From: Leptospira sp.
GTDB lineage: Bacteria > Spirochaetota > Leptospiria > Leptospirales > Leptospiraceae
Assembly: GCA_034439575.1 (NCBI GenBank)
Contig: JAWXAQ010000036.1
Location: forward strand, 64,001-128,000
Direction: 5' to 3'
Length of the DNA stretch: 64,000 bases
In this document: piece by piece, positions 5,451-39,779 of the stretch
Layout of the letters: each line of letters begins with the position of its first letter
Numbering within the stretch: position 1 is the first letter of the stretch
Made by a program: the position numbers and the translations under genes
Notes under the pieces: generated by a model
Databases searched by the model: none
What the model was told of the DNA's origin: nothing
Seen by the model: only the letters and a program-made list of their open reading frames with translations

Positions 5451-5474
5451 ATCAACGTTTCTCTGCCTTGGTAC

Positions 5475-6170: not shown

Positions 6171-6184
6171 GCCACCTCATATCA

Positions 6185-7375: not shown

Positions 7376-7384
7376 TTTTCCTTT

Positions 7385-7957: not shown

Positions 7958-7993
7958 CTAAATTTAAGTATCGGATTTTCCAACCAACTAACC

Positions 7994-13642: not shown

Positions 13643-14787
13643 GGTGTTACCTCCGTATTGCCTGTGTCTGGCGGTGACGTAACTGGGATATTCTCAATTG
13701 GAGTTTCAGGTTTAATCGTAGACCTTTGTGGATTTAATATTGGTTTTTTAGGAGAATTGGACTTTTGAGAATTGTAATCTTTTTCTTTTGGAAAATCGAT
13801 TTCACCAAAATAAGGGCCTTCGATCTGAATTGTTTTTTCCGCAGGCCACTCTTCTCTCCATTTTTCTGGTAATTTTTTTAGAACGATCACATTTAATAAT
13901 TTGTCAAATTCTACAAATGGTCTCACATAAGCCGTCTTAAACGATCCGTTTCTCGCACCTTCTTCGATGATGATACCAACTGGAATTCCTTGTGGATAAA
14001 CTCCGGAACCACCAGAACTAAATACTGGTTTTCCAATTTTACTAAAACCTTCTGTAAAAAAAGTATTTCCTGTGTTAGCTTGCGTTGGGCCCATGGGAAA
14101 AGTTCCTATGGCTTTCGGATCTATCACAATTCCAGAATCTATATAATCTAATAATACATCTGTTCCTCGTCCACTATTGCCTGTTAATGAGGCCCATAAG
14201 TTTGTTCCTGGGACAGAAACACCCATAGAAAAATTTGAGTTGATCAAAGGTTGCACAACAGCCGATCCTTTGGAAACAGCGATGATTTTTCCAACAAGGG
14301 CTTCTGTGAATCGTCCTTTATCATCTAGCGCCCGTGCTACGACTGGCATGTATGGTTTGATTCCGACTTCTGATCCTTTGTTAATAATAATTGTTCTATA
14401 AATGGAATTCAATCGAACACTAAGAACTTCTGCGCGGACTGCTGGATAATCTGTACGAATTGGAAAATTAAGCTCTTGTCTAAGGATTGCATTCTCAGCC
14501 TTCAAACGATCCACGTCTTTGGAGAGTTGGCGGTATTCTTCCATAACATTTAAACATGAGTCTCGTTCTTCACGAACTCTCTCGAACGACTCTAGTTTGT
14601 TATATGAACTTTTAATCAAACTTCCGAATGAGTCAAAGGAACCTGAAAAAAAATCGCCGACCCCTTGGAACGTGGCGATGCCTTTTACCATGAAATTTCC
14701 ATTCCAGATAAGTGAGGTAAAAGAAAAAATAAGGACAAACCCAATCGAAAGGGCCTCTCCATTTCGGCTATATCGGTTCCAAATCAT
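13639..14787 (-). CDS. mreC: Rod shape-determining protein MreC
   Basis: TM, coiled coil ([12 protein letters not shown]), [25 protein letters not shown] at 14787 preferred. Confidence 0.93.
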
Positions 14788-14948
14788 GGATATTATGTCA
14801 CATGAAATAGAAGGGAAAGAAAAATTCAAGTAGTTATCTTTATTGCAATATTTTGACCAAAGAATTCGCAATTTACTGCTTTACAATGCCCAAAGTCGTT
14901 CCTACACTTCACAAGTTTTGAAGGTAATCTTTGAGAGATAAATGATTC

Positions 14949-17900
14949 ATGTATTCTTTGATTAATTGGCTTGAATCTGTTTTTTTGGGAATTCCTTTGC
15001 CCTTATTAGAAGTTTGGGGGCGTTTCGGATACATTCTTGGTTTATTTATCATGATTGTCGCGTTTGGAGGGTTTACCTTTCGCCCTGGAGGTCGTTGGGG
15101 GTTTGGAAAGGAAAGACAATCTTGGGATCTTCGAGCACTTCTTAGCATTTTATTTACTATTTTTTTAGTTTTTGTCACGGGTTATCTGGGATCATTCCTC
15201 GTCCTAGTTCCCGGAGCCCAAACGTTTGAGTCTTTAAAGGACCTTTCTGTTTTTCTTTGCATCACTCTTTTTGGTTACCCAGCCCTCCTTGCGATTCCCT
15301 TTGTTTATGGTTTGTCAGATTTGATGGAAGGGGTACCACCCGAGTATCTTTGGGATTGGATACTTGGTTATTTTATCAACCCAGCTTGCTTTTGGATCGG
15401 ATACCAATTGATAGGACGTTCCCCTGATTTTCGAAAATTCAGTGTTTGGTTAAAGTATATCCTTTTCGTCGCCATTTTTATGTTAGTGGAGCCATTACTT
15501 TGGGGTTATCTCTGCTCGACTCAATTCACTCCTGAAATTTCTTATCGAACCATTACACCTGCTTTGTTTTTCACGACAGCGATCACTTGGGTAATTGCCC
15601 CCTTTGCAATGTTAGTTGCATTGCCTATTGCCAGGAAATACGGATTCTTTTGGGCAGAGATTCCTGGGCATGTAAAAGAATTTGTAATCAGTTGGAAGGA
15701 AGGAAAGTTTTCAAATCCAGATGAAGGGATTGATTCGGAACGTCCAACGCAAGGACTTCCGATTCGAATGTTTCTTGTGACTCCCTTTATCATTCTCGTT
15801 TTAGTAATGGTCGGTATCACAGCGTATCTGGCATTAAAAAATTCAGAGTTAGGCGCCGCTAAACTTGCGTCGAGATTACACGAAGAAATATCGAATCACA
15901 TACATTTTAGATTGGAAAACTATATAAAAGAAAATCCTGGAAAAATTTATCCCATACAAAAATCACAAATTCAATCTATCTTATCAAGTTCAACATTAAC
16001 ATCCGCAGGAAAGGCCTTTATTATTGATAGAAGAGGCCATTTGATAGCAACCTCAAATGCCAATTTGTCAAATGATAAATCGGAACTCGAAGTTTCTTTG
16101 GAATCTGAAAGGATCTATCAAAATATAGTAAAAAACTTAAATGAAAGATTTAGTGACTTAAGTTCGATTCAATCCCCGCATCAATTAACATTTGATATAG
16201 TTACAGCTAAACCATTGTCTAGACAAGTCTGGCTTATGCAAGTGACTCCATTTGATAACCAAACATTAGATTGGTTAATTGTGACTTCCATACCTTCATC
16301 TTATTATTTAGAAGGAGTCAATGCGGGAAATAGCCAAACGGCTATGGTATTCGCCATTGCACTTGTATTATCTTTGTTAATTGCAATTATTTTAGCAGGA
16401 ATTGTTGCAGGACCAATCAGAAAAATTACCATTGCTAGTCGTGAGATTGCAAAGGGAGATTTCAGCCAACGAGTTCCACTTAGTAACTTAGAAGAATTGG
16501 GCGCACTTGCTGTTTATTTCAATAATATGGCTTCCCAATTGCAAGATTCATTTTCTCGAACAAAAACTAGCGAATCCCGATTTCGTAATATAGCAGAAAC
16601 AATCGAAGATGTATTTTGGATCACTTCAACTAACAAAGAAAAAATTATTTATATCAGCAAAGCCTATGAAAAAATCTGGGGGAGATCATGTGAGAGTTTA
16701 TATGAAGATCCATACCAATGGGTGAATGCGATTCATGAAGATGATAGGGAAGCTGTTAGAATCGCCAGTATTAAACAAATTGCAGAAGAATATGACTTAG
16801 AATATAGAATCATTCGTCCAAATGGTGAAATCAGATGGGTTCGAGATCGAGGTTTCCCAGCGCAAGATTTGAATGGGGAATATACCCAAATCGTTGGTGT
16901 GGCGAGAGATATTTCGGAAGAAAAACGATTTGTTAAAATGATATTGGATTTAAATACAAATTTAGAAGCTAAAGTGTTGGAGCGAACTGAAGATTTACGT
17001 AAAGCAAATGAAGAATTGAAAAATGCATTTATAAAACAAGAATTGGTGATGACGGAATTGGAAAATACTCAGGATCACTTATTGCGTTCTGAAAAAATGG
17101 CCGCATTGGGTCAGTTAGCCGCCGGAATGACTCATGAATTAAAAACACCACTTGGTGCCATCGTTTCCTCAAATAGAGCTATATTAGAAATATTGAATGA
17201 AGATATTGATTTACTTTCTAGCACATTGATGTCCATGAGTGAAGAAGATGGAAGAGTATTTCGTAGTTTACTGAAGGATTGTATTTCTTTACTCGCATCT
17301 CCAGATAATTTTCCTTCTCGGGCACAAAGAAAACAAATGAGTGAAGATCTAAAAAATGTTGGAATAGAAAATGTTACTAAAGTAACAGAGATGATTTTGG
17401 ATCTTGGAATCTATCAAGTAAATGAAAAAATATTAGAACTTGTTAAAAGTGAGAATCATTTAAAAATTCTAAAATCATTATTATCAATTATTATTTTGAT
17501 TCGAATGAGCAAAGTCATATCACTTGCAACAGGTAAAGCAGCGCATGTAGTGGATGCATTAAAAAATTACTTAAGACCAAATGGTGATGCCCAAGAGATA
17601 GAAATGACTCAAGTTGATATTATCTCCGAAATTGAATCGATACTCACTCTCTATCACAGTAAGTTAAAACAAGGCATCGAGCTGATTAAAGATTATCAAA
17701 CGACTGCATTTTGTATAGGAAATGGGAATAAATTAAACCAAGTATGGATTAATTTATTAAATAATAGTTTGCAAGCCATGAATTACCAGGGTAAACTAGA
17801 GATAGTTGTTCGAGTAGAAAATCATTGGGTGGTCGTTTCCTTTACGGATTCAGGCCAAGGTATTCCTGAAGAGATAAAAAACAAAATTTTTGAACCATTC

Positions 17901-27272: not shown

Positions 27273-27863
27273 TCAAATTTGAATCTTTGTAATCATTTCA
27301 TTTAAGGTAGATTTGGCTCTAACTTTTGCCTTCGGGTCTTTTAGTAATCGATTATAAAAATGGAAACCTAAAATAATGCCCCAAATTTCTTGTATGATTT
27401 GATTTAAATCCGCTTTTTGGCTTATTTCTTTTTTTTCGACAGCTTCTAAAAAGAATTTTTTTAATGTTTGTTGCCATTCTAACTGCGATTTTACGAGAAA
27501 ATCTCTAACTATACCTGGTTTATCATCATATTCTAAGCTTGATGAAAGAAAAATACATCCACCTGGTAACTCAGCTTTGGTGGACCAATTTAACCATGAA
27601 TTAACTGCCGTGATAATCCTTTCAATTCCGGGTTTGGTTTTTAGTGATGGGTAAATAACGTTTCGCCTGAATAATTCAATACCTGATTTTAAAACATCAA
27701 TTTGTAAATTTTCTTTAGATTGGAATTTGGCAAATAGTCCGCTTTTGGACATCTGCAATTCAGTAGCAAGGGTTCCAATGGTTAATCCATCTAATCCATG
27801 CACACTGGCAATTTTTAAAGCTGAATCTAAAATGAGGGATTTTGTATCTTCGCCTTTTCCCAT
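27273..27863 (-). CDS. TetR/AcrR family transcriptional regulator
   Basis: GLTIGTLATELQMSKSGLFAKF.SKENL HTH; GGCIF C-terminal motif. Confidence 0.93.
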   Translation of the reverse strand: MGKGEDTKSLILDSALKIASVHGLDGLTIGTLATELQMSKSGLFAKFQSKENLQIDVLKSGIELFRRNVIYPSLKTKPGIERIITAVNSWLNWSTKAELPGGCIFLSSSLEYDDKPGIVRDFLVKSQLEWQQTLKKFFLEAVEKKEISQKADLNQIIQEIWGIILGFHFYNRLLKDPKAKVRAKSTLNEMITKIQI

Positions 27864-27965: not shown

Positions 27966-29456
27966 TTAGGGAAGAATGGCTATTGTATTGCAAATTGAAT
28001 CAATATCATAATTCAATTTTGATTTTAAGCAGGAATTCCAAGAGATTTTTGACAATTCTGATTCAGGTTTTGAAATTAAATAGTATAAATAATTAGAATC
28101 TGGATTTGAAATTAAATTAAATTTTACTTCACTTGAATTAACGCATTTATTGCTCCAATCAATAGTTAAGAAAGTTTTTTCACAAACAAAACCCAGAATT
28201 GTTTCTGACGAAACTAACCCGTCTGTTCTGGAAGTTCTATAACTTATATGCCAAGGATAAGGATTGATCGGAATATAGTAGTGAGTATCATTTAGAAGTT
28301 TATGATATTGATTCCAATCAGAATGAGAAAGTGATTTTTCTGATTCAAATTCCTTATCTTTACCTAAACTATAAAGCAAACAATTTGCAAAAAAATAAAT
28401 GATTAGAATATATAATTGATACTTTTTCAAATTTAAAGGTAGAAATCGAATGATCAATAGAATCACAGAACTAAATAACATAAAGTTCATACGATTAAAT
28501 ATAACGAATGTTTCTCGATTTCTTAAAATATTTGCATTTGGCATTGATAATTCGACTAATATGATACTTCCGATGGATAAGTATAACAAAAGGACTGGGG
28601 AAAAAAGAAATTTAAATAAATTACTTAGTTTTAGTTTGTGAATGAAAAAAATCGGAAATAGGATGAATAAAATTCCTATGTCAAAGAATAATATTTTTTT
28701 TAGATTTAAATAAATATATTCCATCGAGTATAGAAGTATTTTAAAATTGCTAAGATATGATTTAATGTGATTCAACTCAGGATGATTTGCCTTATAATTT
28801 AACATGACTAGAAGTTCAGTAAAATTGAAAGTAAATAGAATCATGAGAACGAATAATAGTTTTAAATTCTTTTTCAAAATAGAATAAAGAATTAAGAAAC
28901 TAATTATAGGTAAAAATAGAATCATCGTTCCTTTAGAACAAAGAAAAATGCCAATAAGGAAAGATATAAAAATATCTTTGGTAGTAACCAATGTTTGAGT
29001 AACTCTAACTAAAAATAATATAATTATCGGTATACTAAAGTATATAAAATTTGTATAAGTTCTAATTTCATAATTTGGTAATAATCCAAATAAAATTGAA
29101 AATAGAAAAATCACATTTTTGTTTCCGTAAGTTAGGCGAAAATAATTCAAATTCCATAGGGAACAAAAGAATGAAACAAAAAAAATAGCGCAAAATTGTG
29201 AAGCAAAATTATAGTATTTAACAATACCTAAAATTTTTACTATAACAAAAGCCAATAAACGTGGAAATAAAGGAATATAACTAAAATCAAGTTTGGTGAT
29301 ATTTGCCCAAATTCCTTCATAAAATGCCGTAGTAAAATAATTATTGCCAGCTTCTGCCCAAATCTCCGCTCTATAAGATAAAGAAGGATATGAAAAAATA
29401 TTATGTAAAAATATTATTACGAAGGCAAAGATAAAATGAGAATTGATTCTATGCAT
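27966..29456 (-). CDS. Polytopic membrane protein, probable GT-C (GtrII/GtrC-like) glycosyltransferase
   Basis: About 11-13 TM segments; first loop RAEIWAEAG..Y.PLFPRL; last gene of the GtrA/GT2 operon. ATG at 29456 overlaps the upstream stop. Confidence 0.65.
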   Translation of the reverse strand: MHRINSHFIFAFVIIFLHNIFSYPSLSYRAEIWAEAGNNYFTTAFYEGIWANITKLDFSYIPLFPRLLAFVIVKILGIVKYYNFASQFCAIFFVSFFCSLWNLNYFRLTYGNKNVIFLFSILFGLLPNYEIRTYTNFIYFSIPIIILFLVRVTQTLVTTKDIFISFLIGIFLCSKGTMILFLPIISFLILYSILKKNLKLLFVLMILFTFNFTELLVMLNYKANHPELNHIKSYLSNFKILLYSMEYIYLNLKKILFFDIGILFILFPIFFIHKLKLSNLFKFLFSPVLLLYLSIGSIILVELSMPNANILRNRETFVIFNRMNFMLFSSVILLIIRFLPLNLKKYQLYILIIYFFANCLLYSLGKDKEFESEKSLSHSDWNQYHKLLNDTHYYIPINPYPWHISYRTSRTDGLVSSETILGFVCEKTFLTIDWSNKCVNSSEVKFNLISNPDSNYLYYLISKPESELSKISWNSCLKSKLNYDIDSICNTIAILP

Positions 29457-30051
29457 CTGATTCGCCTTTCCAAATCGGTATATTTGATAATTTAGTACAA
29501 ATTGCGTCGAAGATGATATTTTCATTTATTATAATGTTCTTAAATAGTTCGATATCTTCTTTTCTGCCTTGTAATTCGGGAGAGACAAGGCACAATTTAA
29601 AGCCATTAGATTTTAATATATTATAAGTTTTATTATCTAAAGGAAATTTAGTAAAACAATCTACCCATACCCAGTCAATTTTCCCACTTAAACTTAAAAC
29701 AGTTTCGATAGTTTCAAATTCAGAAAACCTGACTGCGATATTTTTTTCCAATTGATTTGAAAGTTGAATAATCATCGGAAAGGAAGAATCCAGAAAAAAA
29801 TATTTATGAATATTGAATTTGGATAATAGCTCTTTGACGCGGTTTTCAATTCGTTCTGATTTAACATTGCATATCATCAGTTCGTGATTGTATGATTTCA
29901 AATACTCTTCAAAGTTAGTTCCAGCTTTAAATGGATCATGTTGGATGATTATTTGATTACCATTATCACGTAAATCAAGTTCGACTCCGAATTCAAGAGG
30001 AACTGATTTTAATTCTTCAATTGTATTGATTCTGTGAGCAATATAAAGCAT
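29449..30051 (-). CDS. PI-PLC/glycerophosphodiester phosphodiesterase-like protein
   Basis: IAHRIN, GVELDLR, IIQHDPF, NVK, WVWVDCF, LCLVSPELQGR, AICT. Confidence 0.75.
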   Translation of the reverse strand: MLYIAHRINTIEELKSVPLEFGVELDLRDNGNQIIIQHDPFKAGTNFEEYLKSYNHELMICNVKSERIENRVKELLSKFNIHKYFFLDSSFPMIIQLSNQLEKNIAVRFSEFETIETVLSLSGKIDWVWVDCFTKFPLDNKTYNILKSNGFKLCLVSPELQGRKEDIELFKNIIINENIIFDAICTKLSNIPIWKGESDA

Positions 30052-30056
30052 TGTTT

Positions 30057-30761
30057 TTAATTTATTAATCTTTGTTTCAATTTTTTTGAAAAATCTAATG
30101 TACGTTTAATAAATTTGATCTTGGATTTTATTCCCGTATTCCAACTTGAATGCCCATGAATTCGCGGCGGGAATAAAACATCAAATCGAATCAAATTTAA
30201 TTTTTTGACTTTTGCAAGATAGTATGCATATAGATCTAATGAGAAATCAAACGGTGGGTCAATCCATGATTCAAAAAAGCTTTTATGGAATAAATTTGGT
30301 TGTGCATTGATATCCCAGAAAATTTTTTTCAAATACATACTTTCAAATAGGCTCATACCAATTGTGAAAAAAAGGTCAAATATCCCTCTACCTTTTCTAT
30401 TTCCTTTAACGTATGATAGATGAGGTTCTTTTGAAAATTCCAACAATTCAAGAGCCTTTAGCAAATCAGAAGGATCAGTTTGCATATCGGCGTGAGTCCA
30501 ACCCAAAAATTCTCCTTTTGCAATTTTTAAACCAGTAAGAATTCCATAACCGTAACCTTGATTTATTTCAACATTAGCGATTTTTAAAAACTCAAACTTG
30601 GTTTTTAGCAAATTTAATTCATTCGCCGAATTGTCAGTCGAACCATTGTTAACTAATATTATTTCTATATCCTTTCTATTTATCACAGAATGCAATTTAT
30701 TTAACAACAATGGTAAATTCTTTTCTTCATTATAACAAGGGATGACGATTGATAATTTCAT
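30057..30761 (-). CDS. GT2 polyprenol-phosphate glycosyltransferase (GtrB/DPM1-like)
   Basis: SIVIPCYNE, NNGSTD, NQGYG, HADMQTDP, RIHGHS. Confidence 0.88.
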   Translation of the reverse strand: MKLSIVIPCYNEEKNLPLLLNKLHSVINRKDIEIILVNNGSTDNSANELNLLKTKFEFLKIANVEINQGYGYGILTGLKIAKGEFLGWTHADMQTDPSDLLKALELLEFSKEPHLSYVKGNRKGRGIFDLFFTIGMSLFESMYLKKIFWDINAQPNLFHKSFFESWIDPPFDFSLDLYAYYLAKVKKLNLIRFDVLFPPRIHGHSSWNTGIKSKIKFIKRTLDFSKKLKQRLIN

Positions 30762-30780
30762 CTTTATTTCCAGATTTATA

Positions 30781-31542
30781 TTAGTAAGCTATTTGGAAAA
30801 AATGTTTCCAATATTCATAAGTTTTTAGATCATTTGGTGTGCCATAACATAAGTAATGATCAATTTCAAATACTTTCACTTTTTGTTTTTTTTCAATCAA
30901 TTCATTCATCAATTCATCAATATAAAATTCATTATTGATTCTTCGATTTTTTGAAAACATTACTTCATAAGCATTAAAAAAATCTTTCGCTTTTTTAAAA
31001 TAGAATGAACCAACAATCGCATGATCTTGCACTGGATTATCAGAAATGGGAATTTTGCAAGAAACTGAAATAGCATTATTGCCTTCTGTTTTTACCCATC
31101 CGTACATTTTTGGATTTCGTTTAACAGTCGCATTATTTCTAAAAGTCCAGATACATGCATCTACTTGCGCATCATTCAAAATTTTTTTCCATTCCAGTTC
31201 ATTCCAGGTCATTCCATTGTCACACGGCCCGATAAATAATTCAGAATTTTCTGGAATCAGATCCTTTGCAAGTGAAGCGGTAGTCGCCTGACCCTCTGTT
31301 AAATAATCTATAGAGATAAATTTAGAATTTGGAAATTCCTTTAATAAGGTTTCCTTAAGAGGAAATTGAGATTGATGTTCTTCTCTTATAACAAATATCC
31401 AAAGATCTGCTTGAGGTAAAGATTGACAAGCTTCTATAATCATTGGTTTTCCATTAACATCAATTAGTGGTTTAGGTAAAGTATAGCCTTCATCAGAGAA
31501 TCTTTTTCCAGCTCCTGCCATTGGGATCAAATTAACTCGCAT
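30781..31542 (-). CDS. Sugar-phosphate nucleotidyltransferase family protein
   Basis: IPMAGAGKRF..GY.LPKPLI, TEGQA, NNEFYI, GTPNDL. Confidence 0.85.
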   Translation of the reverse strand: MRVNLIPMAGAGKRFSDEGYTLPKPLIDVNGKPMIIEACQSLPQADLWIFVIREEHQSQFPLKETLLKEFPNSKFISIDYLTEGQATTASLAKDLIPENSELFIGPCDNGMTWNELEWKKILNDAQVDACIWTFRNNATVKRNPKMYGWVKTEGNNAISVSCKIPISDNPVQDHAIVGSFYFKKAKDFFNAYEVMFSKNRRINNEFYIDELMNELIEKKQKVKVFEIDHYLCYGTPNDLKTYEYWKHFFQIAY

Positions 31543-31957
31543 TATACTGCCCTGATTCCTTTTTCTTTTTATTATTAAAAACGAAAAAATTCGTTCCGAG
31601 AAAATTCAAAATTGTTGAGATACAAATTGCAAAGATATTTCCGATTTGAGCATTGAATAAAGCGATATCGTCAACTATGAATTTTAAGAAAATCGTACTA
31701 AGCACAAGGGAAAATGTATAAACGATTAAATATTTAAAAAATACATCCTTATGTGTAACATCTGCTTGTTTTTTATATGTCCAAGTTTTATTTAAAAAGT
31801 AACCAACAATTAATCCAATTACATATCCCATTATGGAAGAGATGATATAATGCATAAAATTCATAAATAAAGTAAATGAAAGATAATTTATTATGGTACT
31901 TATGCCACCAACAATTAAGAAACGAATCAAATTTTTGAATGTCTGATTCAGAATCAT
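31532..31957 (-). CDS. GtrA family flippase
   Basis: Four TM segments; RFLIVGG..T.INY, YFLNKTWTY, NFLG..FFVF. Confidence 0.88.
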   Translation of the reverse strand: MILNQTFKNLIRFLIVGGISTIINYLSFTLFMNFMHYIISSIMGYVIGLIVGYFLNKTWTYKKQADVTHKDVFFKYLIVYTFSLVLSTIFLKFIVDDIALFNAQIGNIFAICISTILNFLGTNFFVFNNKKKKESGQYNAS

Positions 31958-32712
31958 TTTGTTTTTGTAAAAAAATTAGACCAATACAAATATTCTTCAA
32001 GGTCTTCCGGAGTTCCCCATTGTAACATAAATGGGATTTCGTAAATATAAACTTTTAACCCACTTTCGACTAACTGATTGTAAGTTAGTGAAACATAATA
32101 TTCTCCATTCAATTCTATATTTTTTTCCATCAAGGCATTGAATGAGTTTTTTAAAATTCTTCCATTTTTGTAATAGTACGTTCCAGAGGATTGGAAACAA
32201 TCCATCTTGTTAGGTGTAAAAGTATGTTTTTCTTTAATTTCAAACATCCAATTATTTTCTTCTCGCATAGAGGCATAAAGATTTGGATGCAATAGATGAG
32301 GATGAAAGCCTTTGTAAGATATTACACAACCATCACATTCATTTTCACTGACCGTTTTTTTGAAATTTTCAAAATTCCAACGCCATGAAAAATCGCAATA
32401 GTTAACGATACATTGTTCATCATCATTTATTTTTTCGTAAGCACGCGATACTGCATAAACGGGGCCTTTCTTATGAGGCTTTATAGAGATGATTTCCGAA
32501 TTAGGTGCAATAGAATTTAATAATTCTCTCATATTCGTTGTTTGGAGATGATCTTCGTTGCAAATAAATATAAAATTTGAATCTTTTGGAAATCTTTCGA
32601 CAACATGTTGAATGATAGGCTTACCTTCAACTTGAATTAAAGGTTTAGGTTCTTTGTAACCAGCCTTTAAAAATCTTTGCCCAGTGCCTGACATTGGAAT
32701 TATTATTTTCAT
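31954..32712 (-). CDS. Sugar-phosphate nucleotidyltransferase family protein
   Basis: IPMSGTGQRF..AGY..PKPLI, NYCDF, NGEYYVS, QWGTPEDL. Confidence 0.85.
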   Translation of the reverse strand: MKIIIPMSGTGQRFLKAGYKEPKPLIQVEGKPIIQHVVERFPKDSNFIFICNEDHLQTTNMRELLNSIAPNSEIISIKPHKKGPVYAVSRAYEKINDDEQCIVNYCDFSWRWNFENFKKTVSENECDGCVISYKGFHPHLLHPNLYASMREENNWMFEIKEKHTFTPNKMDCFQSSGTYYYKNGRILKNSFNALMEKNIELNGEYYVSLTYNQLVESGLKVYIYEIPFMLQWGTPEDLEEYLYWSNFFTKTK

Positions 32713-32713
32713 A

Positions 32714-33781
32714 TTATTTATTTTGCCTAAATTTTTCAGATTCCCAATTACCTAAATAAGCTAGTTCACTTTTAGGTAATGTGATAATATCATTTTTACC
32801 AGCCAATTTCAAACTTAATAAATGCAATTTCATTACTTCTTCCATTTCTTTCGCCTTACGTAAGTTTTTTGCGAAAAAGTGAAGTTTGCCATGCCAATAT
32901 ACAACTTTCGGAAGTTCATGATACTCAGTTTTGTATTTTAAAATTTCTTTTTTATCGAGAGTTTCATTAGCCATTAGAGCTTTAGCGCCATTAAAAACAA
33001 AACTATCGGGGAAAGTTGGATCAATATTTAAAAATTCAAAATTTGATTCTAAAATTGAGTTTATTTCTTTATCATCTGATGAATAAAATATTCCAGTCAT
33101 TTCACCTAGCGAGTGATACATTGAGTTGAGTGTTTCACTTTCTCGAAATTTTTTAAAATTATATTCCAGTTTAGTTTCAAGTTCGAGTAAAATTTTTTCT
33201 AACAATCCCCAAGTTTCTAAATAAGTATCCCCATTTATAATCAATCCATGGTTTTTTAAAAAGATTACATTTGGTAATTCTTTAGAATTTTGTATTTTAT
33301 CTAAAAGTAAAAGTGCGAGTTCAATACCAGGGGTTCCATAATCAACTATACATGCATCTGGAAATAATTCTTTTATCGTCTTGATTCCATTATCTGAAAT
33401 TAAGAAAGGTAAAGTTTGTAATGGATGAACATGGAGAGTAAATTTTCGAAAGAAAACATGTAAAAAAGTTTCGATGGAAGGACGCTGCGTTGTCGTTGAA
33501 TTACTTTCCGTTAAAAGTTGATTCGCTTTCTTTTCTTTATCTTCTTTTGAAATTAAAGATATCCAATCAATATTAGAAATTTGTTCCTTTAATGATAAAT
33601 AATTTACGATAGAATAACCAGAATCCAAGGAAACTTCTGACAATAAACAACCTGATGATTTAATCCACATTGAACCATTATTATCTTTAACACTTGTATT
33701 GCCCCCACCAGCTTGTGTGAGATCTAATCTCATGCCAGCACGTTTTGACATAATCACAAAATCCGAAAAATCAGGATTCAT
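32714..33781 (-). CDS. Class II aldolase/adducin family protein (RhaD-like)
   Basis: AGGGNTSVK, IKSSG, RPSIETFLH, LHVHP, PGIELA, LKNHGLI Zn-binding motifs. Confidence 0.88.
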   Translation of the reverse strand: MNPDFSDFVIMSKRAGMRLDLTQAGGGNTSVKDNNGSMWIKSSGCLLSEVSLDSGYSIVNYLSLKEQISNIDWISLISKEDKEKKANQLLTESNSTTTQRPSIETFLHVFFRKFTLHVHPLQTLPFLISDNGIKTIKELFPDACIVDYGTPGIELALLLLDKIQNSKELPNVIFLKNHGLIINGDTYLETWGLLEKILLELETKLEYNFKKFRESETLNSMYHSLGEMTGIFYSSDDKEINSILESNFEFLNIDPTFPDSFVFNGAKALMANETLDKKEILKYKTEYHELPKVVYWHGKLHFFAKNLRKAKEMEEVMKLHLLSLKLAGKNDIITLPKSELAYLGNWESEKFRQNK

Positions 33782-34466
33782 TTATAATAGTCCTTAGTTC
33801 AAAAAAGTTCTGGAATTGAGTAAATGATTTTTTCTCTTTGATAACATTTTCATGTTTTTGATTAAAATAAAAAGCAAATATTCCTACGTTAGTTGCACCA
33901 AGAATATCCTTTTCCCAATCGTCACCGATCATGCATACTTCGTTAGGTGACAATTTAACCTTATTGAGAGCATTTAAATACATATATGGATGAGGTTTTT
34001 CATGACCAGTTTCTTCGCTTGTTACGATTGATATATTTTTAGATTTTCCTAATCCAAGTGAGATTAATTTTTGAAATTGAATTTGGGATGTGAGGTCAGT
34101 GACAAAACAAATTGGAAAATTCTTAATTAATTCATAAAATTCCAACCAACCGGATTTGGGTTTCATATTTGAAATAAAATTATCCCAATAGATTTTTTCG
34201 GCACCGAAAGCTATTTCTGGAACTGGAATCTGTAAATTTTCGCAAATGATTTGAAAATAAAACAAACGACTGTGCGATTGCGCAGTCCCTCTATTTCTAA
34301 ACTTATTAATAACTTTAGCTTCATCATATTGATTTTTCAATTCTGATATAGTTATTTGAGTTTTATTCGCAATCCACTCTAAACTATTCTGGAGGGCGAC
34401 TTTATGAACTGGTTCATAATCATAAATCGTATTGTCTATATCTATTAGAAAACCTTTATATTTCAT
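33771..34466 (-). CDS. HAD-superfamily phosphatase
   Basis: DIDNTIY, SEETGHEKPHP, MIGDDWEKDILGA. ATG at 34466 with GAGG RBS. Confidence 0.9.
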   Translation of the reverse strand: MKYKGFLIDIDNTIYDYEPVHKVALQNSLEWIANKTQITISELKNQYDEAKVINKFRNRGTAQSHSRLFYFQIICENLQIPVPEIAFGAEKIYWDNFISNMKPKSGWLEFYELIKNFPICFVTDLTSQIQFQKLISLGLGKSKNISIVTSEETGHEKPHPYMYLNALNKVKLSPNEVCMIGDDWEKDILGATNVGIFAFYFNQKHENVIKEKKSFTQFQNFFELRTIINES

Positions 34467-34470
34467 ATTG

Positions 34471-36504
34471 TTATCCTCGTCGTCTAAGACGATCACTTAT
34501 AAATAACATTAATATATAATTCCTAATTGATGTTAATCCATCACTCCATTCAATTCCATCTGATATAATCTCTTCTTTGTTAAGAACTGATTCGTCTAGA
34601 ATAGGCTTTAAATCAATAATCGATGTTAAATTAGATATATTCAATATTTGTTTGCTAAGATCTATTTCATAGTCATGTGAATGTTGGAGTTTGTTTTTTT
34701 CTAAAAAATCAATTAGTGGTTCCAAATTTAAAGACGAATCAAGCCTAATTTCGAGTGAAACTTTTGGTCTATGATCCATATTGCCAATTTCAAAATCATC
34801 ATCTGAATACAAACGGAAAACAATATCCGCAAATTCTTTTTGCGGATAAATAAACTTCTGAGCATCTTCATTCCGTTTATTTATCTGTTCTAATATTTTT
34901 TCTATGGAATAACCTCTCTCTTTACTATCACGAATAATTTTCCAATGTTGTCTTAATTTTTCATCAGTATCCAAATATATTTTTAAATCGAGAGCCTTTC
35001 TTGAAATAGGTAAATAGAAAGTATGTAAACCGCTAATTAATATAAAATCCTTTGAACGAACTCTTTTTGGGTGTGTAAATTTTCCTGTATGATGGTCATA
35101 ATCAGTTCTTAGAATTTCATCTCGACTTTTTAATTGCAAAATTTGTTCGGCTTGTCTGTGCAGAAAATTTGCTTTAGGATTAAGATGTGTTAATTCATCC
35201 CATTTATCATGACCTCGTTCCCACTTGTGATCTCCGTCACCTTCTAATTCTACGACTCTATCAGATGATAAAAGTTTTTTTAATGCATTCAGTAATGAAG
35301 TTTTTCCAACACTACTATCTCCGGCTATACCAATTACAAATGGTTGTTGGAATTTATATATAGAATTACTGAGAATGCCATACCTGTATAAGGCAAAAAT
35401 AAAAAGTGAAAGGGTTGCCTCCATTCCTGTAAATGTAATATTTTTGAAAAATTCTGAATTAATTTTTAATGAAATGGGAGTTCCTAAAAATTTTAAATCT
35501 GATATATTTGAACGAAAGAAAAAAATACTATATGATAATATTAGAATGTTTAATAATCCAAAAAGAATATATATGTTAAAGTTTTTCTTTTGCTGTTTTG
35601 CTATAAATATTGTTACAAACGGTAGAATCCATATAAACCAACCCGGTGCTGGAACGATTAAAGATATTAGCACAAAGAACAAAATTCCCAAAAAGTTAAG
35701 AAATAAATCTGCATTAATCTTTTGGTAACTAAAAAAACGAGCATAAAGTATAGTGAGTGCGAATATAGGTAAAATTAATTTTAAATCTCCCATCCTATAG
35801 TAAACATCGTATGCTCGCGCTTGTTGTTCATTCGCGAGAACGAAATGTTGAAAGCCTTTGGAGTCTAAAAATGGACATATGAAAATAAAAATCGGAAATA
35901 AAAGGATTAACAAGTAGTAGATGGAAAACTTCTTTTCATAATTTTTAAATATATAAATAAGTAAGATTGGAAGTGCGGCAATAACATGAAATTTAGTACT
36001 GAAGCTTAAGCCAAACAGTAAAGCGGATTGCCATAATTTCGCTTTCATTAAAAAATAGATCGAAAAAATTAATAGAGCAGTCGGGATCAGATCCAATTGA
36101 GAGTGAATAAAATTTGCATAGAGAATGATGGGAGATAAAAAATAAAATATAAGTATTTCCTTTTTTTTTGAAGGAATGATTTTTAATAGTATAATATAGG
36201 TTAGAATATCAAAAACCAATAAACTAAGTTTTGATATAAAAATTGCCAAGTAATGTCCTTGTCCAAATAAACAATTTCCAATAAAAACGAATGGAGTTAA
36301 CACGAATAACATGAGAGATCCATATGGAAAAGGAGATGGTAAATTAGGATCCCAGTTTCCTAAATAAAGGTTCCAAGGATTCAAGCCAGTCTTAATAAAA
36401 TCAGAAATAAATGGGTAAAATAAATTATCAAAATAATCCGAAGAAAAAAAATACAAAAATGATATTTTGACAAGTATAATTAGATAAGTGCTTAATAATT
36501 TCAT
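34471..36504 (-). CDS. Fusion: GT-C-like polytopic membrane domain plus phosphoribulokinase/uridine kinase domain
   Basis: N-terminal ~380 aa with FPYG, SKL..LVFD, SP..LY..FIHSQLDLIPT, STKF; C-terminal IGIAGDSSVGKT, DGDHKWER, LNPKANF, YDHHTGKF, RDSKERG, FIYPQKEFAD. Confidence 0.82.
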   Translation of the reverse strand: MKLLSTYLIILVKISFLYFFSSDYFDNLFYPFISDFIKTGLNPWNLYLGNWDPNLPSPFPYGSLMLFVLTPFVFIGNCLFGQGHYLAIFISKLSLLVFDILTYIILLKIIPSKKKEILIFYFLSPIILYANFIHSQLDLIPTALLIFSIYFLMKAKLWQSALLFGLSFSTKFHVIAALPILLIYIFKNYEKKFSIYYLLILLFPIFIFICPFLDSKGFQHFVLANEQQARAYDVYYRMGDLKLILPIFALTILYARFFSYQKINADLFLNFLGILFFVLISLIVPAPGWFIWILPFVTIFIAKQQKKNFNIYILFGLLNILILSYSIFFFRSNISDLKFLGTPISLKINSEFFKNITFTGMEATLSLFIFALYRYGILSNSIYKFQQPFVIGIAGDSSVGKTSLLNALKKLLSSDRVVELEGDGDHKWERGHDKWDELTHLNPKANFLHRQAEQILQLKSRDEILRTDYDHHTGKFTHPKRVRSKDFILISGLHTFYLPISRKALDLKIYLDTDEKLRQHWKIIRDSKERGYSIEKILEQINKRNEDAQKFIYPQKEFADIVFRLYSDDDFEIGNMDHRPKVSLEIRLDSSLNLEPLIDFLEKNKLQHSHDYEIDLSKQILNISNLTSIIDLKPILDESVLNKEEIISDGIEWSDGLTSIRNYILMLFISDRLRRRG

Positions 36505-37043: not shown

Positions 37044-39779
37044 ATGGAAAGTCTTAAATCGAAGATATTACAGTTTGTCCGCGAATTGCTATTGATTTTC
37101 TTTGTTACAATCGTTTATTTGATCGCTGGCAAAATGAGTCTAAATTTAGCTTCCTTGGATGGCTATAGTACCCCAGTTTGGCCACCTGCAGGGCTTGCAC
37201 TCGGATTTGCTGTTATATTTGGAAAGAAAGTTTGGCCTGCTATTTTTTTAGGAGCCCTTTTTACAAACACTCCTCAGATTTCTTCCTTCGAAAATTTTAT
37301 TTCCTTAATACTTCAAAATCCACAAAATATAACCATTTCTTTAGGTAATGCGACATCTGCTTTGCTTGGTGCTTTTCTATTGAAGAAATACAGCGATTCA
37401 AATTTAAATTTATTTCAAATTCATCAAATTATTATATTTTTTGTATTCGCTGGACCCTTAAGCTCCGTCATAGCTGCGTTAATAGGTAGTTTATCTCTAT
37501 ACTATTTTCATATTATATATTTTGAATATCTCTTTCAGGCTTGGCTTACTTGGTGGATGGGTGATTCTATCGGTATCATCATTTTTGCTCCACTAGTAAT
37601 TCTGATTTGGAAGTGGTATAATAAAGAAGAAAGTTTAATCAGACTTTCTATTTTTGCATCTGCAATAATTGGAACTTTTACTTTCACAATAATGATTTTT
37701 TTCTTAACTAGAAGTTGGGAAAAGGACTTTTTATCAAATAGAATTAAAGCAGATGGGATAATTATAGCGAAGTCGATAATATCTCGTTTTCATGAACATC
37801 AAAGTATAGTTAGATCTTTGGCATCATTTATTTCATTATCAGAAACTCTCGACAAAAGGAAATTTGAAACATTTGCTAAAGAAAGTTTAGCAGAAGCAGA
37901 TAGTGTTACAGGGCTATCATGGAATCCAATGATCCAACATACAGATAGAAATTATCATGAAAAAATAATGAAAGCTGATTATGAGAATTCAATTGGAATA
38001 ACAGTCCTGGAAGATAAAAAAATAATATTATCCCCAAAATTTGAAGAGTATGTTTATGTGAAATATATTTATCCTTATGAAGAGAATAAACAGGCATTAG
38101 GTCTCAATATTTTTTCGGATAAAGAAAGAAAAGAGGCATTACTTAGTTCAATGGAAAGAAATGCATTCGAAACCACTTCACGAATTTCTCTTGTGCAGGA
38201 TCATCAAAATAATTTTGGTCTCTTGTTTTTTTATCCTATAACTTCTGCCCGCGATAGAAAAGGGTTTGCTACAGCTGTTGTTCGCATATCTACAGTTATA
38301 GAGAAAGCCTTAGCAGGTTTCGAACAGGATGAAATATGTATTAAAATTCAAGAATCAAAAACGAACGGAGAAAGTATAATTTTTTCAAAAAATTGTTTAA
38401 ATTCTGATGAAAAAATTTTCGAAGAATATACTTATTTTCAAAACATTCCACTCGGAACTCATATACTCAATGTTAAACTGCAAGCTACCAAAAAATACTT
38501 TATTGCCAATTTAACAAATGCATCGCGATTTATTTTAGTTATCTCTTCTATTCTCACTGGCTTACTCGGAATTCTAGTTTTGATAGTAATGGGCAAAGAA
38601 AAAAGCATACAAGATATTGTTGAAAAAAGAACTTTTGAATTAGAAAATGCAAACAAAGTAAAATCGGAATTTTTAGCCAATATGAGTCATGAGATTCGAA
38701 CGCCAATGAATGGTGTTTTGGGTATGCTCACTTTATTAGAAATGACAAAGATTGATAATGATCAGAAGGATTATATAGAAAATGCTAAAAAATCAGTTAT
38801 TTCACTTCTAATTATAATTAACGATATATTAGATGTTTCAAAAATGGAAGATAAAAAATTAGAGATAATTCCATTAGCAACTAACATAAATAAACTCTGT
38901 CGGGATGTTCGATTACTTTTTGAATCAGATACTATACATAAAAATTTAAATTTTCATTTGAATTTAATGAATTATGATTCGGACTTAATTGCTTTAGTAG
39001 ATGAGAATAGATTAAGACAAATATTAATCAATTTAATAGGCAATGCAATAAAATTTACATTTCAAGGTTCAATCAGTTTAGAAGTAAAATTAAATGAGGA
39101 TGAATCATTTCTAATCTTTAAAATCATTGATACTGGAATAGGTATTTCTGAAGAAAATATTCATCGACTCTTTGATCGATTTGTCCAACTCGAAGATGCA
39201 AGGACAAAAAAATTCGAAGGTTCAGGATTGGGTTTGTATATTTCGAAACAACTTGTTAACATGATGGGTGGAGAAATTTCAGTGGATAGTAAACTTCATT
39301 TTGGGTCTACTTTTCAATTTACAATTCCCTTTGTTAAAAATGATAAACTTAGCATTGATGTAATGAATCCCTTGCCGAATTCTTTGGAATTAAGAAAAAA
39401 TATCAGAATCTTAGTAGTGGAAGATAATCTTTTAAATCAAAAATTTGTGCTAAAAGTTTTAGAAAAAGAGAGAATAGAAGTCTCTCTTGCTTCAAATGGA
39501 AACGAAGCAATAGGTTTATTAGATGAATCAATGCAAAAGAATACGGATAAATTTAATTTGATTCTTATGGATATTCAGATGCCTATCTTAGATGGACTTG
39601 AGACTACAAAATTAATTCGAAAAAGATCAGATATTTATTGCACTATTCCGATCATTGCCCTAACAGCGAATAGCATGGATTCACAATTAAACGAATATTT
39701 TGAGAACGGAATGAATGCCTGTGTTAAAAAACCTATTATACTATCTGAGCTGTTGGGAACTATTTATAAATGGACTTAA
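37044..39779 (+). CDS. Hybrid histidine kinase (MASE1-CHASE-HisKA-HATPase-REC)
   Basis: PVWPPAG and WWMGDSIG (MASE1), YIYP..N..ALGL (CHASE), ANMSHEIRTPMNG, GSGLGL, VEDN..MDIQMP..KP. Confidence 0.93.
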   Translation: MESLKSKILQFVRELLLIFFVTIVYLIAGKMSLNLASLDGYSTPVWPPAGLALGFAVIFGKKVWPAIFLGALFTNTPQISSFENFISLILQNPQNITISLGNATSALLGAFLLKKYSDSNLNLFQIHQIIIFFVFAGPLSSVIAALIGSLSLYYFHIIYFEYLFQAWLTWWMGDSIGIIIFAPLVILIWKWYNKEESLIRLSIFASAIIGTFTFTIMIFFLTRSWEKDFLSNRIKADGIIIAKSIISRFHEHQSIVRSLASFISLSETLDKRKFETFAKESLAEADSVTGLSWNPMIQHTDRNYHEKIMKADYENSIGITVLEDKKIILSPKFEEYVYVKYIYPYEENKQALGLNIFSDKERKEALLSSMERNAFETTSRISLVQDHQNNFGLLFFYPITSARDRKGFATAVVRISTVIEKALAGFEQDEICIKIQESKTNGESIIFSKNCLNSDEKIFEEYTYFQNIPLGTHILNVKLQATKKYFIANLTNASRFILVISSILTGLLGILVLIVMGKEKSIQDIVEKRTFELENANKVKSEFLANMSHEIRTPMNGVLGMLTLLEMTKIDNDQKDYIENAKKSVISLLIIINDILDVSKMEDKKLEIIPLATNINKLCRDVRLLFESDTIHKNLNFHLNLMNYDSDLIALVDENRLRQILINLIGNAIKFTFQGSISLEVKLNEDESFLIFKIIDTGIGISEENIHRLFDRFVQLEDARTKKFEGSGLGLYISKQLVNMMGGEISVDSKLHFGSTFQFTIPFVKNDKLSIDVMNPLPNSLELRKNIRILVVEDNLLNQKFVLKVLEKERIEVSLASNGNEAIGLLDESMQKNTDKFNLILMDIQMPILDGLETTKLIRKRSDIYCTIPIIALTANSMDSQLNEYFENGMNACVKKPIILSELLGTIYKWT

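Follow-up and report, generated by a model that had tools for sequence, protein, structure and literature searches.

A widespread gene cassette in a Leptospira genome, with a proposed role in five-carbon sugar activation and surface glycosylation

The island and its nine genes

The window analysed here is a 64,000-nucleotide stretch of a Leptospira sp. contig. At positions 27966-36504 its ORF listing contains nine open reading frames, all on the minus strand, with neighbouring genes overlapping or at most 19 nt apart; the co-orientation, the tight packing and the coordinates given in the initial annotation are thus borne out. The island is also AT-richer, as had been claimed: its GC content is 0.288 against 0.342 in the rest of the window, and a value as low was found in only 2% of 111 equal-sized windows, although the adjoining flanks are likewise fairly AT-rich (GC 0.30-0.32). 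The features are:

34471-36504, minus: g1 (whole ORF), fusion of a membrane domain and a phosphoribulokinase (PRK)-like domain
35365-36504, minus: g1 N-terminal membrane domain, GT-C-like (aa 1 to ~380), 10 hydrophobic segments
34471-35364, minus: g1 C-terminal PRK-like domain (aa ~384-647), Pfam PRK 2.2e-33
33771-34496, minus: g2, HAD phosphatase, nearest ribulose-1,5-bisphosphate (RuBP) 5-phosphatase, Pfam HAD 9.9e-18
32714-33781, minus: g3, class II aldolase-fold enzyme (AldII), C-terminal extension of ~160 aa, Pfam Aldolase_II 1.5e-10 at aa 17-195
31954-32712, minus: g4, nucleotidyltransferase NT-A, NTP_transf_3 8.2e-10, NTP_transferase 1.3e-6
31532-31957, minus: g5, GtrA-family small membrane protein (putative flippase), Pfam GtrA_DPMS_TM 1.1e-23
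30781-31542, minus: g6, nucleotidyltransferase NT-B, NTP_transferase 1.8e-5, rmlA_long 2.1e-10
30057-30761, minus: g7, soluble GT2 of the polyprenyl-phosphate glycosyltransferase type, 234 aa, Pfam Glycos_transf_2 2.1e-22
29449-30051, minus: g8, GDPD-fold phosphodiesterase-like protein by predicted structure, 200 aa
27966-29456 (listed ORF to 29525), minus: g9, variable polytopic membrane protein, possibly a second GT-C, ~11 hydrophobic segments

Pfam and NCBIfam models confirm seven of the domain calls made initially, namely the PRK-like domain behind a membrane domain, the HAD phosphatase, the class II aldolase, the two NTP_transferase proteins, GtrA and GT2. As judged by sequence comparison, the g1 kinase domain is much nearer to PRKs than to uridine kinases: the closest solved structures are cyanobacterial PRKs, which align over ~190-220 residues (E 2e-34, versus 3e-13 for uridine kinases), the motifs D-x-x-H-x-x-[DE]-R and Y-x-H-x-T-G are common to this domain and PRK in the alignment, and the PRK-type sugar-phosphate motifs are invariant in the g1 family. 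Annotators label this family 'uridine kinase'. Unlike the Calvin-cycle enzyme, the domain has a membrane glycosyltransferase-like domain as its fusion partner, scores below the cut-off of the NCBIfam PRK subfamily NF005655 (194 versus 236 bits) and belongs to a genome, 99.98% complete, in which no RuBisCO was found. The top NCBIfam model for g2 is NF053830, ribulose-1,5-bisphosphate 5-phosphatase (128.9 bits, E 2.3e-37, below the 330-bit cut-off); since the kinase and the phosphatase both fall under equivalog cut-offs, their substrates may differ. The listed start of g2 is a GTG; the ATG at residue 11, were it the start, would remove the overlap with g1. In g3, the metal and phosphate residues are invariant among 25 sequences (GGGN, S102-I-E104, H117, H119 and H178); its profile matches are the uncharacterised structure 3m4r (3.9e-24) and FucA (1.9e-5), with which the S-x-E, H-x-H and NHG motifs line up in the profile alignment.

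The two nucleotidyltransferases align without gaps at 31% identity, and both retain the catalytic signature: in NT-A, G-x-G-x-R...K-P-L and D107 are kept in 22 fused homologues, and in NT-B, G272, G274, R276, K286, P287 and D370 are kept in fused homologues. Their top models are aldose-1-phosphate enzymes, e.g. RmlA, GlmU, GalU and MurU, with weak matches of the IspD/TarI type. The g8 protein has no Pfam match; its AlphaFold2 model, built from a 29-sequence alignment (pLDDT 95.8), finds its best Foldseek matches among glycerophosphodiester phosphodiesterases (TM ~0.70, E 7e-7), and H6, R7, N9, E24, D26 and H38 are invariant.

The GtrA gene sits between those of NT-A and NT-B. The nearest solved relatives of the GT2 are ArnC (6.3e-11), DPMS (3.6e-9) and GtrB sll0501 (1.8e-8), and a segment scan of the protein found no hydrophobic segment. 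All 10 hydrophobic segments of g1 fall in aa 3-329; the island's own g1 membrane domain has no Pfam match and no GT-C model, Pfam matches in the family (n=20) being to GT87 in three members, ALG3 in two and PMT_2 in one, while D99, H134, Q136 and D138 are invariant in 20 sequences. The ninth gene, listed as a 519-aa ORF, probably starts at Met24 (29456), which would abolish a 77-nt overlap with g8; the Atlas entry of the protein likewise begins at residue 24. As to its earlier description as GT-C-like, the protein is polytopic, but the likeness in fold is modest (TM 0.62 to an Alg9/PMT_2 cluster, for an Atlas model with pLDDT 0.62), and neither a Pfam match nor a GT-C model was obtained. The GT-C assignment is thus weak for both g9 and the island's g1 membrane domain.

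A cassette in bacteria and its soluble half in viruses

Relatives of the island were found at 80 loci in many bacterial phyla. The seven genes counted as the core (g1, HAD, AldII, NT-A, NT-B, GT2 and g8) are all present in 53 of these loci and at least six of them in 67, the individual genes occurring in 80, 69, 71, 71, 71, 70 and 63 loci, respectively; complete sets lie on one strand in 51 of 53 cases and span a median of 6.5 kb. As a control, eight genes flanking the island were counted in the same 80 loci and gave 0, 0, 0, 0, 0, 3, 0 and 0; the arrangement of the core therefore exceeds chance, and the co-occurrence that the initial annotation had proposed to look for does exist across phyla. 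NT-A and NT-B form one protein in 52 of the 80 loci, the GT2 shows a median identity of 59% over its 70, and GtrA was detected by tblastn in only 31. Eight of the nine genes are a conserved cassette, whereas the ninth, seen at just 6 of the 80 loci, is variable. In Azospirillum, the cassette lies inside an ABC-transporter O-antigen-type locus, and elsewhere it adjoins gmd, GT4 and DegT genes. It was not detected in any of the 24 same-genus genomes searched, and the island is located at a synteny breakpoint; we regard the island as a copy, acquired horizontally, of a widespread cassette.

Giant viruses and large viral contigs (41 loci) hold the soluble half alone, i.e. the PRK, HAD, AldII, the paired nucleotidyltransferases and the GDPD-fold phosphodiesterase. 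The PRK domain was counted in 30 loci, HAD in 29, AldII in 32, NT-A and NT-B in 36 each, but GT2 in only two and GtrA in one. This half is often fused into three proteins, with HAD-AldII fusions in 27 ORFs, NT-A-NT-B in 22 and g8-NT-A-NT-B in 14; a 716-aa protein of Bodo saltans virus carries a domain 55% identical to g8. Because the viral half contains a g8-type enzyme, g8, initially called PI-PLC/GDPD-like, is assigned to the core of donor synthesis and not to the Gtr half as an accessory. In place of GT2, GtrA and GT-C, the viral module is accompanied by a GT61 Leloir-type transferase, found beside it in 36 of 41 viral and none of 80 bacterial loci (the identity was checked by Pfam in 8 of 8 tested); one viral ORF even joins GT61, g8, NT-A and NT-B. 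This partner argues for a soluble NDP-sugar product, and the product of the cassette's donor module is, too, probably a soluble nucleotide-sugar. The claim that the island makes its own donor is supported, since the donor-synthesis module exists alone in viruses.

The viral loci also bear on the substrate of the kinase. Its score under the PRK subfamily cut-off, the membrane-protein fusion, an unusual trait in a metabolic kinase, and the 'uridine kinase' annotation could mean that the domain acts on a lipid-linked or other intermediate rather than on free ribulose 5-phosphate (Ru5P), or is a regulatory ATP-binding domain, with the soluble enzymes using another sugar phosphate. We consider this decidedly unlikely: in 28 of the 30 viral loci with a PRK domain the membrane part is missing while HAD and AldII are still there, the sugar-phosphate motifs do not vary, and the HAD partner is nearest to RuBP phosphatase.

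A proposed route from ribulose 5-phosphate to a surface glycan

No published description of the cassette was found in the literature, and, in line with the initial annotation, no characterised pathway was found to match its enzyme set. Our main reading, to which we give a probability of roughly 0.6, is that a mobile cassette of eight genes, of which the island is one copy with a variable ninth gene added, turns Ru5P into its own activated C5 sugar and uses it in extracytoplasmic glycosylation. By homology to characterised enzymes, the PRK domain would convert Ru5P to RuBP and the HAD enzyme would remove the 5-phosphate to give ribulose 1-phosphate (Ru1P), the net effect being a shift of the phosphate from C5 to C1. 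For the following steps we infer that the Zn-dependent AldII, whose family binds ketose 1-phosphates, would remodel Ru1P, preferably by a retro-aldol and aldol epimerisation to xylulose 1-phosphate, and that NT-A and NT-B, together with g8, would yield the nucleotide-activated sugar, for which a pentulose is favoured. Homology and gene context suggest that the soluble GT2 then loads the sugar on polyprenyl phosphate, GtrA flips the lipid-linked sugar, and a surface glycan, probably LPS O-antigen or a polymer like it, receives it from the GT-C-like domain of g1 and perhaps from g9. The viral fusions connect neighbouring steps of the route so proposed.

The trio of PRK, HAD and AldII mirrors the characterised non-carboxylating pentose bisphosphate pathway of haloarchaea, where a RuBP 5-phosphatase is reported to share an operon with a Zn-dependent FucA-type enzyme acting on Ru1P (PMC9700705); in the cassette, too, a RuBP 5-phosphatase-like HAD adjoins a Zn class II aldolase-fold enzyme, to which it is fused in viruses. 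The haloarchaeal pathway is described there as catabolic and its RuBP as derived from nucleosides via R15P isomerase (PMC9700705), whereas in the cassette PRK would supply the RuBP and the product would pass to nucleotidyltransferases; moreover, AldII carries an additional domain of ~160 aa, and its closer match is 3m4r, not FucA. By this precedent, and given that AldII keeps aldolase-type catalytic residues, the trio could serve catabolism or salvage, as a shunt from RuBP via Ru1P to DHAP and glycolaldehyde, beside an unrelated Gtr-type system. Such a shunt is extremely improbable: the trio co-occurs, fused or adjacent, with the nucleotidyltransferases and g8 in bacteria and viruses, ATP-made RuBP would be formed only to be degraded, and the related loci show no recurrent R15P isomerase or nucleoside phosphorylase.

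A logic of kinase, bisphosphate, HAD phosphatase and nucleotidyltransferase is familiar from the NDP-heptose route (GmhA/HldE/GmhB). Class II aldolase-fold enzymes stabilise the C2-C3 enediolate, not C1-C2, and the known ketose-1-phosphate/aldose-1-phosphate isomerase fold is MtnA/eIF2B-like; lipid-linked Araf is the substrate of GT-C arabinofuranosyltransferases, and GT61 members include pentosyl (Xyl/Araf) transferases. The phage UDP-arabinose route (AfhE/AfhF) follows the same logic, starts, as the cassette would, from Ru5P and moves the phosphate to the activating position via a 1,5-bisphosphate and a HAD 5-phosphatase (PMC13326640). Compared to both routes, the cassette employs PRK on a ketose instead of an anomeric kinase on an aldose, has no sugar-phosphate isomerase, and adds AldII, a second nucleotidyltransferase and the GDPD-fold enzyme. 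The phage precedent, the aldose-1-phosphate enzymes among the best nucleotidyltransferase models and the GT61 partner would agree with a donor of the aldopentofuranose type (NDP-D-arabinofuranose or NDP-ribofuranose). In that case, isomerisation of Ru1P would yield the aldose 1-phosphate, which one nucleotidyltransferase would activate, the other being regulatory; once placed on polyprenyl phosphate, the sugar would offer GT-C enzymes a decaprenyl-phospho-arabinose-like donor by another route. This reading is unlikely; besides the enediolate chemistry, the cassette has no known isomerase fold of the required kind, and no role would be left for g8, which is invariant, or for the second nucleotidyltransferase, which looks competent.

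The pentulose reading has its own difficulty: the phosphate of a ketose 1-phosphate is not anomeric, a simple sugar-1-phosphate nucleotidyltransferase step alone therefore gives no glycosyl donor, and the roles of the second nucleotidyltransferase and g8 require extra assumptions. The non-anomeric phosphate of Ru1P, as in ribitol 5-phosphate and glycerol 3-phosphate, would suit transfer of a sugar phosphate from an NDP-1-pentulose, or from a polyol phosphate derived from it, in the manner of CDP-ribitol or CDP-glycerol, with g8, by its phosphodiesterase fold and catalytic constellation, trimming or editing the phosphodiester-linked C5 units of a surface polymer; the weak IspD/TarI-type matches would fit as well. 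We find this very unlikely, as GT2, GT61 and GT-C belong to the glycosyl transferases and not to the phosphotransferases, the cassette has no reductase, and no TagF/LicD-type transferase recurs in the related loci.

As to the glycosylation half of the main reading, the Gtr-type lipid-carrier route proposed initially is supported: as in the three-component systems of Shigella/Salmonella phages and their ArnC/ArnT and DPMS relatives, the island combines GtrA, GT2 and polytopic GT-C-like proteins in one operon, a set that fits such a route by sequence. It differs in carrying its own six-domain donor pathway instead of drawing on a housekeeping NDP-sugar, in the fusion of the conserved GT-C-like domain to a kinase, and in its soluble GT2, GtrB having membrane helices. 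Points against the main reading are the lack of GtrB helices in the GT2, the g1 membrane domain and g9 without a GT-C Pfam match, and GtrA in 31/80 loci. The suggested link to xylulose-substituted polysaccharides proved negative in E. coli, where the locus of the sole cassette-bearing strain examined is of the O35 type and not of the O95 or O97 type, which contain Xulf, and no other copy was detectable at the DNA level in further complete genomes.

Taken together, these data describe a cassette that is widespread but unstudied and that appears to turn a common metabolite, Ru5P, into an activated five-carbon sugar for a cell-surface glycan.

Layout and genomic setting of the cassette

The nine open reading frames of the cassette overlap or are separated from their neighbours by gaps of at most 19 nt, and the ORF listing returns coordinates identical to those of the nine co-oriented, tightly packed genes described in the initial annotation. 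The island and its surroundings are arranged as follows:

27273-27863, TetR gene, on one side of the island
27966-36504, minus strand, nine-gene island (g1 to g9)
31532-31957, minus strand, gtrA (g5), inserted between the NT-A and NT-B genes
37044-39779, hybrid histidine-kinase gene, on the other side of the island

The products are a membrane protein fused to a phosphoribulokinase (PRK)-like domain (g1), a HAD protein (g2), a class II aldolase-fold enzyme (AldII, g3), two nucleotidyltransferases (NT-A, g4, and NT-B, g6) separated by the GtrA protein, a GT2 glycosyltransferase (g7), a protein with the predicted fold of the glycerophosphodiester phosphodiesterases (GDPDs), which are PI-PLC-like TIM-barrel enzymes (g8), and a variable membrane protein (g9). 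The GC content of the island is 0.288, as compared to 0.342 in the remainder of the window, and is as low in only 2% of 111 equal-sized windows. The earlier description of the island as visibly AT-richer DNA is thus correct for the genes themselves, but the flanks are fairly AT-rich too: GC stays at about 0.29-0.32 across positions 25000-46000, against 0.35-0.41 in the first 22 kb and at 47-50 kb, so that the AT-rich tract extends well past the nine genes on both sides.

When same-genus genomes were searched with g1, none of the 24 contained a counterpart, the weak matches being to the kinase part only; a full-length match (37% identical) was found in one genome of the same order. The TetR and histidine-kinase genes have orthologues in the relatives that are approximately 60% identical to the flanking genes of the window. 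In the 16 same-genus relatives where both orthologues are on one contig, they lie 264-319 kb apart, as opposed to 9 kb here, which rules out a simple, clean insertion of the island and places it at the breakpoint of a large rearrangement. Operon boundaries could be drawn neither from the promoter scan, which was at the shuffle level (58 promoter-like sites versus 60.8 expected), nor from the terminator-like sites (6 versus 2.7 +/- 2.2 expected from shuffling).

Distribution in bacteria, on plasmids and in giant viruses

Whether these genes belong together can be judged from their co-occurrence elsewhere, a check that the initial annotation had proposed. The g1 family comprises at least 804 cluster representatives. 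In a scan limited to a single genome for each species, 265 of 360 matching stretches were confirmed as relatives. The analysis was continued with the best 80 loci, which belong to Bacillota, Melainabacteria/Obscuribacterales, Leptospiraceae, Bacteroidota, Campylobacterota, Omnitrophota, Babeliales, Planctomycetota and others. In tblastn searches with the nine window proteins, relatives of g1 were found in 80, HAD in 69, AldII, NT-A and NT-B in 71 each, GT2 in 70, g8 in 63, GtrA in 31 and g9 in 6 of these best 80 of 265 loci. All seven core genes (g1, HAD, AldII, NT-A, NT-B, GT2 and g8) are present in 53 of the 80 and at least six in 67; among the 52 loci of 20 kb or longer, the set is complete in 39. 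The complete sets lie on one strand in 51 of 53 cases and have a median length of 6.5 kb, whereas control searches with eight flanking genes from the window were positive in 0, 0, 0, 0, 0, 3, 0 and 0 of the 80 loci. The association of the genes is thus borne out well beyond Leptospira. The highest conservation is that of GT2 (median identity 59%) and g8 (57%), and the other recurring neighbours are either lineage-specific or ordinary polysaccharide genes (GDP-mannose dehydratase, GT4, DegT). Many of the incomplete loci are on short contigs. Two long loci from Obscuribacterales MAGs (L031 and L045) carry the g1-type GT-C/PRK fusion alone, with nothing else of the cassette within 10 kb; the same genomes have a complete cassette elsewhere (L026 and L024).

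True g8 orthologues also occur on three plasmids. The 33-kb IncR Escherichia coli plasmid NZ_CP145712.1 carries the complete cassette, together with a gene for a 586-aa hypothetical protein, at 4986-17325, bracketed by two IS26 copies, one frameshifted and the other intact. A search of 5,426 complete E. coli genomes with the sensitivity of megablast or blastn detected the cassette in 2, each time on a plasmid of about 33 kb; the second plasmid is near-identical and is that of a frog strain. A plasmid of Azospirillum brasilense has the cassette in surroundings typical of O-antigen loci, with ABC-transporter, gmd, GT1 and GT4 genes. Azospirillum brasilense MTCC4039 and Hirschia baltica ATCC 49814 are among the natural carriers that are tractable.

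The ESM Atlas and BFVD gave leads to viral fusions, in particular, a 716-aa protein of Bodo saltans virus with a g8 domain that is 55% identical. In IMG/VR, 41 loci with g8 relatives (47-60% identity) were found, many of them in MAGs of giant viruses and in contigs 100-400 kb long; neither g8 nor GT2 had a tblastn match in 50,697 GenBank phage records, the viral copies being from IMG/VR only. The viral loci contain the PRK domain in 30 of 41 cases (in 28 of these, the membrane part is missing), HAD in 29, AldII in 32, and NT-A and NT-B in 36 each; GT2 and g9 occur in 2 of the 41 each, and GtrA in 1. The domains are frequently fused, as HAD-AldII (27 ORFs), NT-A-NT-B (22) and g8-NT-A-NT-B (14). 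The viral PRK is a protein of about 460 aa with a C-terminal kinase domain (30 ORFs); the N-terminal 210 or so residues of these stand-alone proteins (exemplified by L106:192-1565), which replace the bacterial membrane domain, have no Pfam match. The module comes with a GT61-family glycosyltransferase in 36 of the 41 loci from viruses, versus 0 of 80 bacterial ones; the Pfam GT61 assignment was confirmed for all 8 members tested, and a single 1133-aa viral ORF (L114:287-3688) joins GT61, g8, NT-A and NT-B.

With single contigs, bacterial DNA contamination of the virus bins is possible, and two of the "viral" loci (L111 and L115), which show the bacterial architecture, may be bacterial. The architecture of the viral loci, however, is consistent and differs from the bacterial one, and an isolated giant virus has one of the copies. 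We conclude that PRK, HAD, AldII, NT-A, NT-B and g8 make up the donor-making unit. Its product is probably a soluble activated sugar that is either used directly by a Leloir-type transferase or, in bacteria, passed to a lipid carrier. The occurrence of this six-component module on its own in viruses upholds the proposal of the initial annotation that the island makes its own donor.

Predicted functions of the cassette proteins

The g1 protein (677 aa) consists of a membrane region, which contains 10 hydrophobic segments, and, behind it, a PRK-family domain (aa 390-570 according to Pfam, 384-647 according to NCBIfam). The kinase domain matches Pfam PF00485, the PRK/uridine-kinase family, at 116 bits (cut-off 22) and the NCBIfam PRK subfamily NF005655 at 194 bits, under the curated cut-off of 236; against solved structures, PRKs (E 2e-34) are favoured over uridine kinases (3e-13). 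In the alignment, g1 shares with the PRK structures the D-x-x-H-x-x-[DE]-R and Y-x-H-x-T-G motifs, which are invariant in the family and which we take to be the ribulose 5-phosphate (Ru5P)-binding motifs of PRK. RuBisCO is absent from the host genome, which is 99.98% complete. As to the membrane region, g1 itself has no match to the GT-C Pfam models; among 20 of its relatives, three match GT87, two ALG3 and one PMT_2. A weak NCBIfam match (E 0.0021, 17 bits) of g1 aa 76-206 (window 35365-36504) is to the AZOBR_p60025 family cell surface glycopolymer formation protein.

For HAD, the best of 38 matching NCBIfam models is NF053830, ribulose 1,5-bisphosphate (RuBP) 5-phosphatase, at 128.9 bits, well under the equivalog cut-off of 330. 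Class II aldolase-fold proteins bind ketose 1-phosphates, and g3 matches Pfam PF00596 of this superfamily at 41.7 bits (cut-off 22.2), with an extension of about 160 aa. Its residues H117, H119, H178, E104 and G26-G27-N28 never vary among 25 sequences and align with the S-x-E, H-x-H and NHG motifs of FucA; AldII keeps the three Zn-binding histidines, the catalytic acid and the phosphate-binding loop of the class II aldolase/epimerase/dehydratase superfamily.

Both NT-A and NT-B (families PF00483/PF12804) contain the catalytic N-terminal G-x-G-x-R...K signature and a conserved Asp, and neither reaches an NCBIfam equivalog cut-off. The two proteins are paralogues that align without gaps at 31% identity and are fused into one protein of about 550 aa at 52 of the best 80 of 265 loci; their separation by gtrA in the window seems to be derived. 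The nucleotidyltransferase-like proteins KfoE and BcbE are presumably tied to fructofuranose addition.

The 200-aa g8 protein gives no match to family models, Pfam GDPD included, and sequence and profile searches of the PDB returned chance-level matches only, with no solved GDPD. AlphaFold2, however, predicts its fold with a pLDDT of 95.8 from a 29-sequence alignment (47.9 without the alignment), and the best 13 PDB matches of the model are all GDPDs (TM 0.67-0.71, 12-16% identity). The residues H6, R7, N9, E24, D26 and H38 are invariant; H6-R7, E24-x-D26 and H38 presumably correspond to the H-R...E-x-D...H-D catalytic constellation of GDPDs. The previous PI-PLC/GDPD-like label agrees with the predicted fold.

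The remaining genes resemble, in part, the Gtr-type systems. The g5 product is a small membrane protein of the GtrA family of putative flippases (PF04138, E 1.1e-23, aa 12-127), as found in those systems. The catalytic domain of the GT2 protein is nearest to ArnC, DPMS and GtrB; unlike GtrB of Gtr-type systems, which has C-terminal membrane helices, it has no hydrophobic segment in its 234 aa. The g9 protein, which probably starts at Met24, is a polytopic membrane protein with about 11 hydrophobic segments and no GT-C Pfam match; its low-confidence model aligns with an Alg9/PMT_2 cluster at TM 0.62, suggesting a modest resemblance to Alg9/PMT-type GT-C enzymes. The GT-C assignment of g1 and g9 in the window is thus weak. 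A further difference is that Gtr-type systems use a housekeeping NDP-sugar (UDP-Glc), whereas the GT2 of the cassette always comes with a dedicated module for donor synthesis, which viruses carry alone, so that the cassette does not appear to draw on a housekeeping NDP-sugar.

Proposed pathway and its implications

Based on the homology of PRK and HAD, we infer that Ru5P would be converted to RuBP and further to ribulose 1-phosphate (Ru1P). AldII would then remodel Ru1P, the resulting C5 sugar would be activated with a nucleotide and moved onto polyprenyl phosphate, GtrA would flip the lipid-linked sugar, and a GT-C enzyme would perform the final transfer. A described RuBP 5-phosphatase makes Ru1P and has a Zn-dependent FucA-type Ru1P enzyme as its operon partner (PMC9700705). 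The same logic of kinase, bisphosphate, HAD 5-phosphatase and nucleotidyltransferase as proposed here is documented for phage UDP-arabinose (PMC13326640).

A pentulose is the favoured candidate for the sugar itself, given that the ketose level would be maintained for two steps, there is no isomerase and the extra enzymes suit a ketose. This scheme has a gap, in that the phosphate of a ketose 1-phosphate is not at the anomeric position, and it would have to be the second nucleotidyltransferase and g8 that bridge it. We know of no described way in which the anomeric C2 of a pentulofuranose acquires a nucleotide. A specific solution, which we consider unlikely as it stands, is that g8, NT-A and NT-B do so via a 1,2-cyclic phosphate. 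NT-A would act on the ketose 1-phosphate to yield NDP-1-pentulose, the anomeric 2-OH of this compound would displace NMP, yielding pentulofuranose 1,2-cyclic phosphate, g8 would open the latter to the 2-phosphate, and NT-B would make the glycosyl donor NDP-2-pentulofuranose (xylulose or ribulose). The merit of this route is that each of the three always-linked, often-fused domains would have a necessary role.

Organisms whose glycans contain xylulofuranose (Xulf) or xylulose include E. coli O95/O97, chloroviruses MT325 and TN603, Yersinia enterocolitica O:5,27 and Campylobacter jejuni, the last in its capsule. Xulf residues are described without an identified activated donor in the pertinent accounts (PMC7685785, PMC9614988). 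According to the 2019 review of E. coli O-antigens, no precursor genes for D-xylulofuranose are found in the O95/O97 gene clusters, and there was as yet no demonstration of nucleotide-activated Ribf (PMC7685785); for the chlorovirus glycans, the configuration of xylulose is given as undefined (PMC9614988). A tie of the cassette to these documented glycans was considered and is unsupported: megablast or blastn searches of the 5,426 complete E. coli genomes detected the cassette in only two, the chromosome of the E. coli strain carrying NZ_CP145712.1 has an O35-family wzy rather than an O95/O97 ABC-transporter locus, and the BFVD fold search yielded no close chlorovirus homologue of g8.

Full-text searches, with most subscription journals outside their coverage, found no literature joining phosphoribulokinase, GtrA and glycosyltransferase, or ribulose-1-phosphate, nucleotidyltransferase and glycosyltransferase. 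Within the same coverage, nothing relevant was found on NDP-pentuloses, as judged by title and abstract, or, among the matches listed, on PRK, giant virus and nucleotidyltransferase together.

Taken together, a kinase of the Calvin-cycle type apparently starts sugar activation in a genome without RuBisCO, in a seemingly undescribed pathway that has spread over many bacterial phyla, plasmids (including the IS26-bracketed unit of E. coli) and giant-virus contigs. As a candidate for the activation of a C5 ketose or another rare pentose, the cassette is concrete and can be cloned, so that the question of activation is directly testable with six soluble enzymes and Ru5P. If the 1,2-cyclic phosphate route were true, it would be the missing route to the Xulf-type residues of some O-antigens and chlorovirus glycans. 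More generally, the pathway would extend the repertoire of the Gtr-type serotype-converting systems by a new sugar and would provide a marker for surface-glycan variation moving between hosts.
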